Of a DNA stretch of 64,000 bases, positions 29,835 through 63,635 are shown one piece after another. Made by a program: the position numbers and the translations under genes. Every line of letters begins with the position of its first letter. The first letter of the stretch is position 1. This DNA is from a virus, in the IMG/VR virus record IMGVR_UViG_3300023184_000048, positions 52,742 to 116,741 of that record. The stretch is one strand, 5' to 3'. The notes under the pieces are model-generated. The model searched no databases and had not been told where the DNA came from. It worked only from the letters and a program-made list of their open reading frames with translations.

Positions 29835-29880
29835 AACCTCTGGGAATTTTAGAAATATTATTCCTAGAGGTTTTCTTTAT
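29835..29880 (+). terminator. Rho-independent terminator-like hairpin
   Basis: AACCTCTGGGAAT/ATTCCTAGAGGTT 13-bp stem (one G-U pair) followed by a T-rich tract. Confidence 0.7.
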
Positions 29881-35726: not shown

Positions 35727-35737
35727 TTTGTATAATT

Positions 35738-35809
35738 TTGAGGTAGATTTTGTAATCTCATTCTGATAGTAAATGATAAGAATGGCTGGTTCGATCCCAG
35801 CACCTCAAA
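35738..35809 (+). ncRNA. tRNA-like element (canonical acceptor + T arm, aberrant D and anticodon arms, no CCA)
   Basis: TTGAGGT/ACCTCAA; GCTGG-TTCGATC-CCAGC; AGATT/AATCT; CATTCT/AGAATG. Confidence 0.6.
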
Positions 35810-38561: not shown

Positions 38562-38639
38562 GGGGGTGGGTTGTAAAATATTGACGAGTGTCAATATCAC
38601 ATCTGTTGTGTTTGTTTTTTCATAAAACAACCCACCCCC
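38562..38639 (+). ncRNA. Structured intergenic element: 13-bp stem enclosing two hairpins
   Basis: GGGGGTGGGTTGT/ACAACCCACCCCC; ATATTGAC-GAGT-GTCAATAT; CACA-TCTGT-TGTG. Confidence 0.6.
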
Positions 38640-51052: not shown

Positions 51053-51502
51053 ATGGCACAACCCGTAAAGAAAATAGTAAGAAAGAAAGTAGTTGCTAAA
51101 ACACAAGAGCAAAAATATACAGAACTTCAAAATTTGATGGTTGAGTTTTTTGGTCTTGAAGTTGGTGATAGTGTTCAAGTTATCAGTGAAGTTGAAGAGA
51201 ATGAAAGTGGTTCTTGTAGCGACCAATCCAATAATATTGGAGAGATTTTGGCAATTGAAGACATTTCTATTGATGGTATATTTCTTTCAGATGAAAATTG
51301 GTATCCAGTATATGCTCTTAAGAAAGATTTAAATAGTTTCAAAATCAATGATGATTATACCGCACAAATTGATGATGATGGTTCTGTAATTATTGGTTGC
51401 ACTACTGTTGGCTTTGATCTTCTTACTAAGATTTATACTGCTGCATTGGCCAAGCATGAAGAGTATATTGATATTTTTGACGATGAAAACTATAACTCTT
51501 GA
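51053..51502 (+). CDS. Hypothetical protein
   Basis: ORF track. Confidence 0.75.
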   Translation: MAQPVKKIVRKKVVAKTQEQKYTELQNLMVEFFGLEVGDSVQVISEVEENESGSCSDQSNNIGEILAIEDISIDGIFLSDENWYPVYALKKDLNSFKINDDYTAQIDDDGSVIIGCTTVGFDLLTKIYTAALAKHEEYIDIFDDENYNS

Positions 51503-51755
51503 TCAATTCAGAGAACTAATCAAATCTGCTTATACTCTTGAAGTTGATGGATTAATTGTTCAATCATATTGTATCTTTGATAATCCAGAAAATGAATTCT
51601 TCCTATGGATTTCTTTAGATAATAACTTATTCATTAAGTTCTATTCAGATGATAATCAAGAAATTAGACATGATGAAAAGGGTCTGTATCTGATGGATGA
51701 ATTGGGAATCATTTTTGCGGTGATGCCAATTATGAAGGAAATTTTAAATGATTAA
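51483..51755 (+). CDS. Hypothetical protein
   Basis: Start refined. Confidence 0.7.
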   Translation: MKTITLDQFRELIKSAYTLEVDGLIVQSYCIFDNPENEFFLWISLDNNLFIKFYSDDNQEIRHDEKGLYLMDELGIIFAVMPIMKEILND

Positions 51756-51778
51756 AAACTAAACTATAATACACTTAT

Positions 51779-51964
51779 ATGAAAACACAATTCGTCGCAC
51801 CACAAAAGAGTCTTATCAGTTCGTGGAAGCATGAAGCTTTCACTAAGCCTAAGAAAACTGTGGAAATGATTAAGAAGTCTCTTGGCAATAAGCCTCAAAG
51901 TTTGATTTATATCAGGGGAAGTGTTGCCAAGGCTGGTAATGCCGAACATAGCAATCTTTATTAA
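51779..51964 (+). CDS. Hypothetical basic protein
   Basis: Cassette-N8-ATG. Confidence 0.65.
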   Translation: MKTQFVAPQKSLISSWKHEAFTKPKKTVEMIKKSLGNKPQSLIYIRGSVAKAGNAEHSNLY

Positions 51965-51975
51965 TCTTAAAATAC

Positions 51976-52185
51976 ATGTCAAATAATAAACAAGGAAGTT
52001 TAGGTAATATACTTGCAGCGATTTGTAGCTTTTTTATTCCCGGATTAGGTCAATTATTTCAGGGAAGATTGATGATTGCAATTGTTCAATTTGTATTGAC
52101 AATTATGCTTTGGTGTATATTGTTGGGTTGGATTATTCATATCTGGTCAATTATTGATGCTGCAAAGTTTAATCCCGCAGATTAA
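51976..52185 (+). CDS. Small TM2-like membrane protein
   Basis: LAAICSFFIPGLGQL.QGR...I...H.WSI.DA, a common bacterial membrane family. Confidence 0.75.
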   Translation: MSNNKQGSLGNILAAICSFFIPGLGQLFQGRLMIAIVQFVLTIMLWCILLGWIIHIWSIIDAAKFNPAD

Positions 52186-52206
52186 AAACTAAACTATAAT
52201 ACTCAT

Positions 52207-52647
52207 ATGAACAAAATCAAATTTGAGCAGGAATTGGTTCTTTCTAATTCATATAGTTCCAAGAATATTGGTAAACATATCAATGAAATGGAGCTTCGTA
52301 TTCATCCTCATGGCAAGTCTGGTTGTATCATTTGGAATTATTGGCCAGAGAATGATGAAGATAACATGGATGAAACTGTTATTGGTCTTTGGTTCAATGG
52401 TAATGAAGAAGTCGAAGATTATGATGGTGTCTTTGAACTTCCTACCGAAGCTTTAAAACTTATTCGTGATAATGGATATGGGTTTAATGAAGATATGAGG
52501 GAAAGTTATCCTGATCCCACACCAGAATTTACCAAAGAATATGTCAAAGGTATTCTGGGAAATCTTCTCAATGAAACAAAGTCTGATAACTGGGATTGGA
52601 ATGGTAAAAAGACTTTGATGATTCTTGCTGAAAGATTGGGTGTTTGA
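52207..52647 (+). CDS. Hypothetical protein
   Basis: Cassette-N6-ATG. Confidence 0.75.
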   Translation: MNKIKFEQELVLSNSYSSKNIGKHINEMELRIHPHGKSGCIIWNYWPENDEDNMDETVIGLWFNGNEEVEDYDGVFELPTEALKLIRDNGYGFNEDMRESYPDPTPEFTKEYVKGILGNLLNETKSDNWDWNGKKTLMILAERLGV

Positions 52648-52658
52648 GTAAATGATCT

Positions 52659-52766
52659 TATCACCAAGGGATTTGAATATCTCATAATAGCTTAATTAAA
52701 GCCTTCGTATAGTAACGATGAGTTCTGGTAATAATCCAGTTATGAGTAAAAAATCCCTTGGTGATA
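52659..52766 (+). ncRNA. Cloverleaf RNA mounted on a perfect 16-bp stem
   Basis: TATCACCAAGGGATTT/AAATCCCTTGGTGATA; CTCATAA/TTATGAG; GCTT/AAGC; TCGT/ACGA; CTGG-N7-CCAG. Confidence 0.65.
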
Positions 52767-52795
52767 TTCTTTAAAAACTAAACTACAAAAAGAGT

Positions 52796-52978
52796 ATGAG
52801 TCGTTCAAAGAAGAAAGATTATCCTAATATATTTGATTCTCGTAGATTTGATTGGAGTTGTAGGAATCATGGTTCATGTTGCTATTGCCAACATAATAGA
52901 ATATTCTTTGATGAGAAAGCTAGAGCTAAAGCTGATTTAAAAGAACAAGAAAAAGATTATCAATACTTAGAAGATTGA
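52796..52978 (+). CDS. Conserved small phage protein
   Basis: MSRS.K..Y...S.RFD.SCRNHG.C.YC..NR. Confidence 0.75.
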   Translation: MSRSKKKDYPNIFDSRRFDWSCRNHGSCCYCQHNRIFFDEKARAKADLKEQEKDYQYLED

Positions 52979-53025
52979 TTAAAAACTAGGTTAAAATAGT
53001 AACGTAAGCGAAACCACTACTTATT

Positions 53026-54552
53026 ATGCAAGATACACTTCAACAAATCGCTATTTATGATTGGGTTAAGAATCCTAATCCTGCTAAAAAGAATCTTATT
53101 GTTAAGGCTAGGGCGGGTTCTGGTAAGTCTAGTTCTGCTTGTAAGGCTATGCAGTATATTACTGGTAGTGGTCTTATGTTGGCCTTTAATGCTATGGCTG
53201 CTAATGAGCTTAAAACTAAGCTTATGAATATGGCTTTGCCTAATGTCACAGCTTCGACTTTTCATGCTGCTGGTAAAGGGATGCTCTATAAGGCTTTTGG
53301 TTATCATAAGGTCAATGCATCTAAGGTATATTTCATTACTGAGAATTATTGTCAAAGTGAAACACTAACTTATGCTCGTAATTTTATTGCGAAGTTGGTT
53401 GGGTTTGCTAAACAAAATGCCTTTGGAGTTAAAGGTGAAACTCTTATTAGTGATACACAAGCATGGATGGACATTATTGCTCATCATGATATTACTCTTG
53501 AGGCTGATGTTGATTTCCTCACTGTAATTGAGATTGCCAAGGATGTATTGATTGAGTCTAATAAAGATTTGAAGTGTATCGACTTTGATGATATGTTATA
53601 TCTTCCATTGATTTATGATGTGAAGTGTGATCAATACGATTGGCTTGTTGTTGATGAAGCTCAGGACACCAACCTTTGCAGGAAGATTCTTGCTCGTAAA
53701 CTTCTTAAAATTAGTGGTCGTGGTATTTTTATTGGAGACGATTTTCAAGCAATCTATCAATTCTGTGGAGCTGAGAGTAATTCTTTAGATCTTATTGCTG
53801 AGATGTTTGATTGTGAAGAATTACCACTGTCAGTCTCATTCCGTTGTGGTAAAAAGATTATCGAATCTGCTCAATTTTATTGCCCTGATATTCAGGCATT
53901 CGATAGTAATTCTGAAGGATCTATTACATACACAAAATATCAGGAGTTTGTTGATAATGCTCTCAACATTAAACTTGACAGAAGTGTGGGGATTCTTTGT
54001 AGGAATAATGCTCCTAATGTTGCACTTGCATTCGCCTTAATAAAGCAAGGAATAGGATGCAGGATCGAGGGAAGAGATATTGGTAATGATCTCAAGAAGC
54101 TTGTTAAGAAATGGAAGCGTGTCACTGATCTTGATCAATTCACTATTAAGCTTACTGAATTCTTCACCAAAGAATTTGAAAAGGCTAACTATGCTAAGAT
54201 GCAACTTCTTGAGGATAAGTTAGATGTTATGATCGTGCTCATTGAACGTGTGCAAAGTCTCGGTAAGAATGATATGTATTCTTTGGAGAAATTGATCACG
54301 GATATGTTTACCGACTCCACCGATGATAATGTTCCCAACGTGGTGACACTTAGTTCTATTCATAAGGCCAAAGGATTGGAGTGGGATACTTGTTACATGC
54401 TTGATATGCAACAATTTATCCCTTCTCGTTATGCAAAGCAACAATGGGAATTAGATTCCGAAAATTGCCTAGCTTATGTTGGTATTACTCGCGCAAGACA
54501 CGAATTGATTCACCTCACGGATGCACCTAAAAGAAGGAATAAAGAAGATTAA
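53026..54552 (+). CDS. UvrD/Rep-like SF1 DNA helicase
   Basis: ARAGSGKS, LAFN, TFHA.G, DFDDML, VDEAQD, GDDFQAIY.F.GA, LSVSFRC, LCRNN, SSIHKAKGLEW, YVGITRAR. Confidence 0.92.
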   Translation: MQDTLQQIAIYDWVKNPNPAKKNLIVKARAGSGKSSSACKAMQYITGSGLMLAFNAMAANELKTKLMNMALPNVTASTFHAAGKGMLYKAFGYHKVNASKVYFITENYCQSETLTYARNFIAKLVGFAKQNAFGVKGETLISDTQAWMDIIAHHDITLEADVDFLTVIEIAKDVLIESNKDLKCIDFDDMLYLPLIYDVKCDQYDWLVVDEAQDTNLCRKILARKLLKISGRGIFIGDDFQAIYQFCGAESNSLDLIAEMFDCEELPLSVSFRCGKKIIESAQFYCPDIQAFDSNSEGSITYTKYQEFVDNALNIKLDRSVGILCRNNAPNVALAFALIKQGIGCRIEGRDIGNDLKKLVKKWKRVTDLDQFTIKLTEFFTKEFEKANYAKMQLLEDKLDVMIVLIERVQSLGKNDMYSLEKLITDMFTDSTDDNVPNVVTLSSIHKAKGLEWDTCYMLDMQQFIPSRYAKQQWELDSENCLAYVGITRARHELIHLTDAPKRRNKED

Positions 54553-61820: not shown

Positions 61821-61897
61821 GGACATGTAGCTCAGTCGGATAGAGCAAAAATTTTCTAAATTTTAGGTCATTGGTTCGATCCCAATCATGTCCACCA
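61821..61897 (+). tRNA. tRNA-Arg(UCU)
   Basis: GGACATG/CATGTCC acceptor, GCTC/GAGC D stem, AAAAT-TTTCTAA-ATTTT anticodon arm, ATTGG-TTCGATC-CCAAT, encoded CCA. Confidence 0.92.
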
Positions 61898-61937: not shown

Positions 61938-62558
61938 ATGAATATCGAAACTAATAACTCTTGTAACTCTTGTAACTCTTGTAACTCTTGTAACTATTGT
62001 GACTATTGTGACTCTTGTGACTCTTGTAACTATTGTGACTATTGTGACTCTTGTTACTATTGTTACTCTTGTGACTCTTGTGACTCTTGTAACTCTTGTA
62101 ACTCTTGTAACTCTTGTAACTCTTGTGACTCTTGTAACTATTGTGACTCTTGTGACTCTTGTGACTCTTGTTACCCTTGTTACTATTCAAAAAATCTTAA
62201 AATGACTGAATACAACACATTTTGTTGGTCTGAACAATACAATGATGATAAGTCATTCCAACAAAAACGTTATCGTATCTTTAATAAAGAGTATTCAAAA
62301 TCTGCATACGTAAAAATTACATCAAAGATTGAATCCATTATTCCTAATCCCAATAAACTGAAGTTATCAGAGTTTTGGAAAAAGATCACTCAGGATCAAA
62401 TCAAATCTATCATGAATATTGAAGATCTTGAATTTGATGTGGAAGGTTTTGAATATATCACTGGAATCAAGGTTCAAAAAGAACTTAGTGAAGTTGAAAA
62501 AGCTATTCAACTTTTGACCGAAAAAGGATTACTGAAGGATGGAAAGGTTCTCTTATAA
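61938..62558 (+). CDS. Cys-rich tripeptide-repeat protein
   Basis: 25 x-x-C units, then YRIFNK-type domain seen in phage repeat proteins. Confidence 0.8.
   Translation: MNIETNNSCNSCNSCNSCNYCDYCDSCDSCNYCDYCDSCYYCYSCDSCDSCNSCNSCNSCNSCDSCNYCDSCDSCDSCYPCYYSKNLKMTEYNTFCWSEQYNDDKSFQQKRYRIFNKEYSKSAYVKITSKIESIIPNPNKLKLSEFWKKITQDQIKSIMNIEDLEFDVEGFEYITGIKVQKELSEVEKAIQLLTEKGLLKDGKVLL
61956..62180 (+). repeat. 25 x 9-bp tandem repeat (AAC/GAC/TAC)(TCT/TAT)TGT
   Basis: Direct reading of the sequence. Confidence 0.95.
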
Positions 62559-62571
62559 ATTATAATACTCC

Positions 62572-62671
62572 CATTCTCAATAAGGATTAATTATTGATTG
62601 TTAACCCTAGAGCAAAACAACTTTATTTGTTGTAGGTATAAGGAATGATATAAATGTCCTTATTGAGAATG
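62572..62671 (+). ncRNA. Candidate small RNA: perfect 15-bp terminal stem enclosing hairpins
   Basis: CATTCTCAATAAGGA/TCCTTATTGAGAATG; ACAAC-N7-GTTGT; TATAAT at 62561-62566 places the start at the stem. Confidence 0.6.
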
Positions 62672-63017: not shown

Positions 63018-63092
63018 TGTCCCGTAGCTGAGAGGTTTTAGCACTTTCTTTATAAGGGAGAGACGTGGTTTCGATTACCACCGGGACTACCA
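63018..63092 (+). tRNA. tRNA-Ile(UAU), with non-canonical U1-U72 and U53-A61
   Basis: GTCCCG/CGGGAC, GCTG/TAGC, CTTTC-TTTATAA-GGGAG, GTGGT-TTCGATT-ACCAC, encoded CCA. Confidence 0.8.
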
Positions 63093-63546: not shown

Positions 63547-63635
63547 GAGATTACCACTCCCCCGAAAGGAGAAGGAAAGAACATGTCACTGCAATAATAC
63601 TGCAAACCCTCACACCTGAATTGACAGGAAATCTC
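63547..63635 (+). ncRNA. Cassette-driven candidate small RNA (89 nt)
   Basis: Begins exactly 6 nt after the -10; GAGATT/AATCTC closing stem; CTCC/GGAG, TGCA/TGCA and CCTG/CAGG hairpins. Confidence 0.6.

Follow-up and report, generated by a model that had tools for sequence, protein, structure and literature searches.

The window analysed here is a stretch of 64,000 nucleotides that spans positions 52,742 to 116,741 of the IMG/VR virus contig IMGVR_UViG_3300023184_000048. The contig is 116,741 bp long, has a G+C content of 33% and is estimated to be 57% complete. It encodes rIIA, rIIB, Rnl1-like and Rnl2-like ligases and a UvrD-like helicase, and on its sequence it is read as part of the genome of an uncultured T4-like phage. 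At positions 52659-52766 of the window lies a noncoding element of 108 bases, a branched hairpin placed between two genes (Table 1). It takes up the 123 nt that separate the stop codon of a 146-aa gene from a degenerate copy of the repeated cassette described below. It starts 11 nt past the stop codon and, as the preliminary description of this DNA had stated, ends 4 nt short of the cassette. All neighbouring genes are on the + strand, and so are all cassettes except one. The Cys-rich ORF downstream matched no Pfam or PHROG family; its 36 amino-terminal residues are 61% identical to an unannotated stretch of Aeromonas phage AhSzw-1. A micro-ORF of 18 codons (52718-52774) starts with an ATG inside the element, runs through the 3′ arm of its outer stem and ends with the TAA of the next cassette. 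This ORF lacks a promoter and a Shine-Dalgarno box and is probably due to chance. The tRNA cluster of the phage is 9 kb away from the element. The gene that follows its tRNA-Arg begins with a tract (61938-62190) of about 27 tandem 9-nt units that by eye appear to encode (N/D)(S/Y)C repeats, with a Cys apparently at every third residue.

Table 1. Positions of the element, its parts, its neighbours and two sister elements in the window.
Feature	Positions	Strand	Remarks
Sister element A	38562..38639	+	13-bp GC-rich perfect stem, 52-nt interior, 3 hairpins; behind rIIB, 7 nt before cassette
Upstream gene, 146 aa	52207..52647	+	consensus cassette at 52182; predicted 3′ UTR: the element
Outer stem, 5′ arm	52659..52674	+	perfect 16 bp; mean pair probability 0.97-0.99
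Internal loop, asymmetric 6x4	52675..52680 (5′ side, 6 nt); 52747-52750 (3′ side, 4 nt)	+	
Inner domain	52681..52746	+	7-bp stem (52681-52687 / 52740-52746) closing three 4-bp hairpins
UA linker		+	after the 5′ strand of the 7-bp stem; from the fold
Inner hairpins	52690-52702, 52705-52718, 52725-52739	+	loops of 5, 6 and 7 nt
Outer stem, 3′ arm	52751..52766	+	perfect 16 bp; from the fold
Pyrimidine-rich tail TTCTTTA	52767..52773	+	directly 3′ of the outer stem; overlaps the first cassette bases
Degenerate cassette	52771..52798	+	−10 TACAAA instead of TATAAT; carries the ATG of the 60-aa ORF
60-aa ORF, Cys-rich	52796..52978	+	precedes the UvrD-like helicase
UvrD-like helicase	53026-54552		downstream of the 60-aa ORF
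Sister element C	62572..62671	+	15-bp perfect stem, 70-nt interior; 5 nt before cassette

The cassettes are built on the motif TTAAAAACTAG. Scanning the window with one mismatch allowed identified 72 matches, compared to 3.4 expected, and only one of them is not on the + strand. The motif is followed by a −10 box and then by an ATG about 6 nt further on, with no Shine-Dalgarno box. The stop codon of the preceding gene usually overlaps the motif, and most cassettes have no stem-loop of any kind. The −10 box, read at a fixed position of the cassette over the whole window, changes its sequence at the element: to its left TATAAT is found 35 times and TAAAAT or TAGAAT once, while to its right the counts are 2 and 19, respectively. 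This change is located in the interval from the cassette at 52182 to that at 52979, which contains the element and the one degenerate cassette (52771). This arrangement is consistent with an insulator placed between two transcription blocks; it could also simply mark a recombination seam.

The same motif is used by a separate group of IMG/VR phages with a G+C content of about 40% (L146, L147, L153, L160, L166 and others), which carry 7-8 same-strand copies per 12-15 kb. The group was retrieved from IMG/VR with a 20-mer of the commoner cassette variant (29 loci), and the 20-mer of the rarer variant had no IMG/VR match. An 87%-complete record of this group has no homolog of the UvrD-like helicase. 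The common cassette suggests that the two lineages share a host or a transcription factor. A different repeated motif was noticed in two related phages, L112 (3670-3990) and L113 (3686-3990), where a noncoding stretch of about 300 nt preceding the helicase is near-identical and the flanking coding DNA has diverged. This stretch is apparently made of inverted copies of a putative repeated promoter motif of their own, ATAAAACGTTAG.

Folded as + strand RNA with ViennaRNA, the element has a minimum free energy (MFE) of −39.2 kcal/mol (z −7.2), and none of 200 shuffled sequences was equally stable. The MFE structure is identical to the centroid, and the mean pair probability of 0.87-0.99 per helix holds with and without the flanking sequences. 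Every helix that had been listed from inspection of the letters (the 16-bp stem with its internal loop, the 7-bp stem, the UA linker and the three 4-bp arms) is found in both structures. All pairs are of the Watson-Crick type, so that the − strand folds equally well (−39.9 kcal/mol) and the fold itself is silent on the strand. Six of the 16 pairs of the outer stem are G-C, and the base of this stem is AU-rich.

The outer stem is the source of nearly all the stability signal. Perfect inverted repeats of this kind (arms of at least 13 bp, spacers of at most 130 nt) occur 11 times in the whole 117-kb record compared to about 0.45 in block shuffles, an enrichment of about 25-fold, and seven of the 11 lie inside noncoding DNA, which makes up 8.8% of the genome. 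The structure is real, and its outer stem is either selected or very recent. The signal becomes much fainter toward the interior. The cloverleaf closed by the 7-bp stem has a z of −2.0 and the complete 76-nt interior one of −1.8, and the three 4-bp hairpins taken alone have a z of −1.1, with 27 of 200 shuffles as stable. When the outer stem was kept and the interior shuffled, two of 500 versions were as stable as the element, 16% had three hairpins or more, and the ensemble diversity of the element was below that of 95% of such shuffles. When the 7-bp stem was fixed and the rest shuffled, the three-arm junction was the MFE shape in two of 1000 cases, and 236 of 1000 were as stable. The individual arms described as tRNA-like are thus without statistical weight, and support for the 7-bp stem is moderate. 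Taken as a whole, the interior departs only modestly from randomness, and it probably has a defined fold.

The preliminary description had seen tRNA geometry in this interior. That wording is apt for the 7-bp acceptor-like stem, the 2-nt linker, the four-way junction and the last loop, of 7 nt. The arms, which are all of 4 bp, and the first two loops, of 5 nt (AAUUA) and 6 nt (AUAGUA), do not bear it out. The D-like loop is the 5-nt one and has no GG, the would-be anticodon loop has 6 nt rather than 7 nt with U33, and the last loop, UAAUAAU, takes the place of a T-loop UUCRANY on a 5-bp stem, which is absent. The sequence after the 7-bp stem is UAAA, where a tRNA has its 3′ discriminator and CCA; the lack of TTC and CCA had been correctly noted. 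ARAGORN called nothing at the element, its only calls being tRNA-Arg(UCU) at 61821 and tRNA-Ile(UAU) at 63018. Rfam at gathering threshold gave nothing at the element in a search of the whole window, and the tRNA (RF00005) and YrlA (RF02553) models had no match on 52400-53100 at E up to 10. The element thus has neither an RF00005 score of at least 29 bits nor a call from a tRNA finder, the criterion used here for tRNA membership. The Rfam search that had been proposed as a check was run up to E = 10 on the element, on sister element A and on the tRNA region, and returned only chance-level miRNA and snoRNA rows, with no family matched. Hammerhead, twister-sister and other ribozymes were considered and rejected; none had an Rfam score and their core motifs were not seen by eye. 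Retron ncRNA and CRISPR-repeat mimicry were weighed only as candidates and then set aside.

A tRNA-derived sequence can be told apart at other places of this genome. In a decayed tRNA directly behind rIIA (35737-35809), the acceptor-like stem is still present and the 5-bp T-arm, with the loop UUCGAUC, is intact. ARAGORN and Rfam pass over it as well, the latter even with E values up to 10 allowed. A true T-arm is likewise seen in T4 rnaC. True tRNA descent thus stays recognisable in genomes of this type, and it is not seen at the element. A noncoding slot before a cassette in one of the relatives (L106:3640-3740) contains the T-arm-like sequence GGTTCGAGCCC and looks tRNA-derived, with ARAGORN and Rfam (gathering threshold) silent. 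Tested in all these ways, tRNA identity of the element is not supported by anything. The view of the element as a novel structured RNA survives in part: it is strongly structured, noncoding and outside any Rfam family. The tRNA mimic or decoy included in that view found no backing in the ARAGORN, RF00005 and YrlA searches, in T- or D-loop signatures or in the stability of the arms, and the specific claim of a tRNA mimic is not to be carried forward on present evidence.

A more general version of this idea is that the element is a free-standing small RNA acting in trans, for instance as a tRNA-shaped decoy for anticodon nucleases or for another host RNA-binding defence. We consider this very unlikely. 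In its favour, the interior exceeds most shuffles in both definition and stability, and the three-arm junction is rare among sequences with the same 7-bp stem, as given above. The phage keeps a decayed tRNA in a similar slot and encodes the RNA-repair enzymes Rnl1 and Rnl2. Stable RNAs, T4 rnaC and rnaD, are made near the tRNAs by T4-like phages; their function was not known as of a 2010 review, according to which no small trans-acting RNA had been functionally characterised in the T4 group (PMC3014915). Against such an RNA speak the missing tRNA loop hallmarks and CCA, the negative tRNA, YrlA and ARAGORN searches, the unremarkable stability of the three arms alone, the lack of a promoter of its own and the lack of a Ro (TROVE) gene in the 57%-complete record. 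The element is also absent from 20 related or cassette-sharing records, which leaves conservation of the arms without support.

This absence was established with a covariance model, R1, made from the single sequence of the element (self-score 138 bits). R1 detected nothing in 15 helicase-related records, four of which are 96-100% complete, and in five cassette-sharing ones, and had no match in the 29 loci with the commoner cassette variant. The relatives had been fetched through the UvrD-like helicase, with which they share 63-66% identity; a second contig with an identical helicase (133,652 bp) and contigs with helicases 67-72% identical were outside this search. A search for related loci with the upstream 146-aa protein found nothing. 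In L101 and L107 homologs of the upstream gene are directly followed by the next gene, with no hairpin. The failure of R1 and the hairpin-free arrangement in L101 and L107 point to an element that is young or lineage-specific. Sequence searches were likewise negative. The 117-kb record contains the element only once. Among GenBank phages, megablast and distant blastn had no match apart from one of 46 nt in PBS1, attributable to chance. A single arm of the outer stem had 48 chance matches in IMG/VR, all to one arm only. The cores of both arms separated by a variable gap had eight matches in IMG/VR and 42 in metagenomes, all with unrelated interiors; the eight from IMG/VR, 100 nt long, belong to one unrelated family. 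Outside the window, an exact 14-nt copy of part of the 5′ arm, complementary to the 3′ arm, is present at G000:C1:4951-4964 inside a + strand ORF of 300 codons; its BLAST E value of about 0.06 is marginal.

Such a restricted distribution would also fit a relic at the DNA level with no RNA function, left by a template-switch fold-back or by cassette recombination, or a solitary miniature inverted-repeat element. The perfect 16-bp terminal inverted repeats in single copy, the direct gene junctions in L101 and L107 and the position at a recombination-prone boundary of cassette subtypes all agree with this explanation, which we nevertheless regard as distinctly improbable. The arm pairs met elsewhere in IMG/VR and in metagenomes enclose unrelated interiors and no second copy is found in the record. 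The flanks show no target-site duplication, and the miniature inverted-repeat transposable element (MITE) was rejected as a candidate on this ground and by its single copy, in spite of the terminal repeats. A relic would leave unexplained, moreover, the terminator-type tail and the fact that three elements of unrelated sequence all come after a stop codon and before a cassette.

No promoter was seen by eye, or found in a consensus scan, between the upstream stop codon and the element, which would thus form the 3′ end of the mRNA transcribed from the upstream gene. The preliminary description had called it one of several long-stem RNAs that occupy cassette slots, and sister elements A and C do sit in the same manner between a stop codon and a cassette: they begin 7-13 nt past the stop codon and end 5-7 nt before the cassette. 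Element C is better defined than 96% of shuffles. No paralogy was detected among the three elements, as self-blast against the genome found only the shared cassette. That three unrelated elements all end 4-7 nt before a cassette fits a generic role based on structure. The U-tails of A and C are poorer than the tail of the element, which speaks against a terminator.

Ordinary terminator-like hairpins occur in the genome as well. A canonical one at about 29835-29872 lies directly before a cassette, and its tail TTCTTTA is the very heptamer that follows position 52766. In the 40% G+C sister group the order is a GC-rich hairpin (13 bp, loop of 9 nt), the sequence TCTCTTT and the same cassette. Among the helicase relatives, a complete genome has a 15-bp stem with a structured loop of 32 nt, a U-tract and a cassette-like motif, and elsewhere a 12-bp stem with an interior of 59 nt that ends 3 nt before the cassette. 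Another complete relative has a branched hairpin of 147 nt. The slot just upstream of the cassette thus appears to be the place where this lineage keeps its transcript-end hairpins, with large structured loops that recur and sequences that are unrelated.

The best reading of the element is that of a terminator or insulator, which fits its position and its tail better than excision or a stable RNA does. More precisely, we give about an even chance to its being the oversized, branched stem-loop, with terminator and insulator function, of a promoter/terminator module resembling the PeSL cassettes of T4-like phages (see below). RNA polymerase would start at the consensus cassette at 52182, transcribe the 146-aa gene and then the element. 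The compact interior would fold first and draw both arms together, and the 16-bp stem would zip while the UUCUUU tract emerges, so that transcription is terminated or strongly attenuated. The hairpin left at the 3′ end of the upstream mRNA would also shield it from 3′ exonucleases. The element would thereby insulate the block with TATAAT cassettes on its left from the helicase and tRNA block with TAAAAT/TAGAAT cassettes on its right. Some of the traits of intrinsic terminators are present, namely the 16-bp stem, the UUCUUU immediately after it and the position behind the stop codon. Others differ: the interior of 76 nt stands where a loop of 3-10 nt is usual and the stem is not rich in G+C, with 6 G-C pairs of 16. 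A consensus terminator scan of 51500-53500 called no terminator.

Two further observations argue against termination. The −10 box of the cassette at 52771 is degenerate, and the 60-aa ORF might depend on read-through from upstream, which a strong terminator would block. Furthermore, a terminator does not require a defined and stable interior of the kind indicated by the shuffles (two of 500 and 14 of 300). Co-transcription of the 60-aa ORF, suggested by the same degenerate −10 box, would agree with an intercistronic RNase III site, where the host enzyme cuts the coaxial helix of 16 and 7 bp and separates the upstream and downstream mRNAs; the inner 66-76 nt might then be freed as a stable by-product RNA. 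The perfect stem, the 23 bp of helix broken by an asymmetric 6x4 loop and the intercistronic position are all appropriate for such a site, and we hold it to be unlikely for the following reasons. A phage gene for RNase III is absent from the 57%-complete record; a stem of 16 bp is shorter than the roughly two helical turns that double-strand cleavage usually needs; and the cut would not give the downstream ORF a 5′-terminal AUG, unlike the situation of the other cassette genes. Neither RNase III processing nor the action of an RNA in trans is mutually exclusive with termination. The action in trans could be extended to the sister elements: A, the element, C and perhaps 63547-63635 would form a class of discrete trans-acting RNAs, about 80-110 nt in length and closed by long stems, placed in gene-like slots and released by RNase III or by termination. 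They would serve, for example, as decoys or sponges for host RNA-targeting defences, alongside the RNA-repair genes of the phage. We consider this minority reading quite improbable. If it were true, the T4 group would have in these sequences a set of candidates for stable non-coding RNAs.

Should the terminator reading be correct, a phage that provides nearly every gene with its own near-leaderless promoter would wall off blocks of genes by a few large and fast-evolving hairpins set at their boundaries. The PeSL idea would then also take in an uncultured T4-like lineage and branched terminators whose loops are very large, a type that standard terminator finders miss.

Several known systems can be compared to the element. 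The T7 R-sites, which are cleaved by RNase III between early genes, have a layout of lower stem, internal loop and upper stem. The element resembles these signals as an intercistronic hairpin with a lower stem, an asymmetric internal loop and an upper stem, and is unlike them in that a three-arm junction stands where their upper part is a simple hairpin. With rnaC and rnaD it would share the nature of a small structured RNA of a T4-type phage, and with YrlA a long terminal stem that carries a multi-arm domain; it has neither the true T-arm of rnaC nor the T- and D-loop signatures and the Ro partner of YrlA. Its likeness to intrinsic terminators lies in the gene-end position, the stable stem and an immediate U-rich tract identical to that of the canonical hairpin in the genome; its structured 76-nt interior in place of a 3-10 nt loop and the low G+C content of its stem set it apart from them. 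A close parallel is provided by the promoter-early stem-loop (PeSL) cassettes of T4-like phages (Arbiol et al. 2010, PMC2839356; Comeau et al. 2014, PMC4122927). Their stem-loops were shown to act as terminators or attenuators, are often built of poly-G and poly-C tracts and are commonly located over the −35 and −10 boxes or between them (PMC2839356). Both systems belong to T4-like phages and comprise small orphan genes in a variable region, a conserved promoter repeated between genes and an adjacent stem-loop; the PeSL stem-loop ends upstream transcription next to the promoter, and the same role is predicted for the element. The cassettes described here differ in having no Shine-Dalgarno box and, for the most part, no stem-loop, with an ATG about 6 nt after the −10 box, and the element differs in being 108 nt long, branched, AU-rich and wholly upstream of its cassette. 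It is best classed, as an unusual variant with a large loop, among the stem-loops found at gene ends beside the promoter cassettes of T4-like phages.
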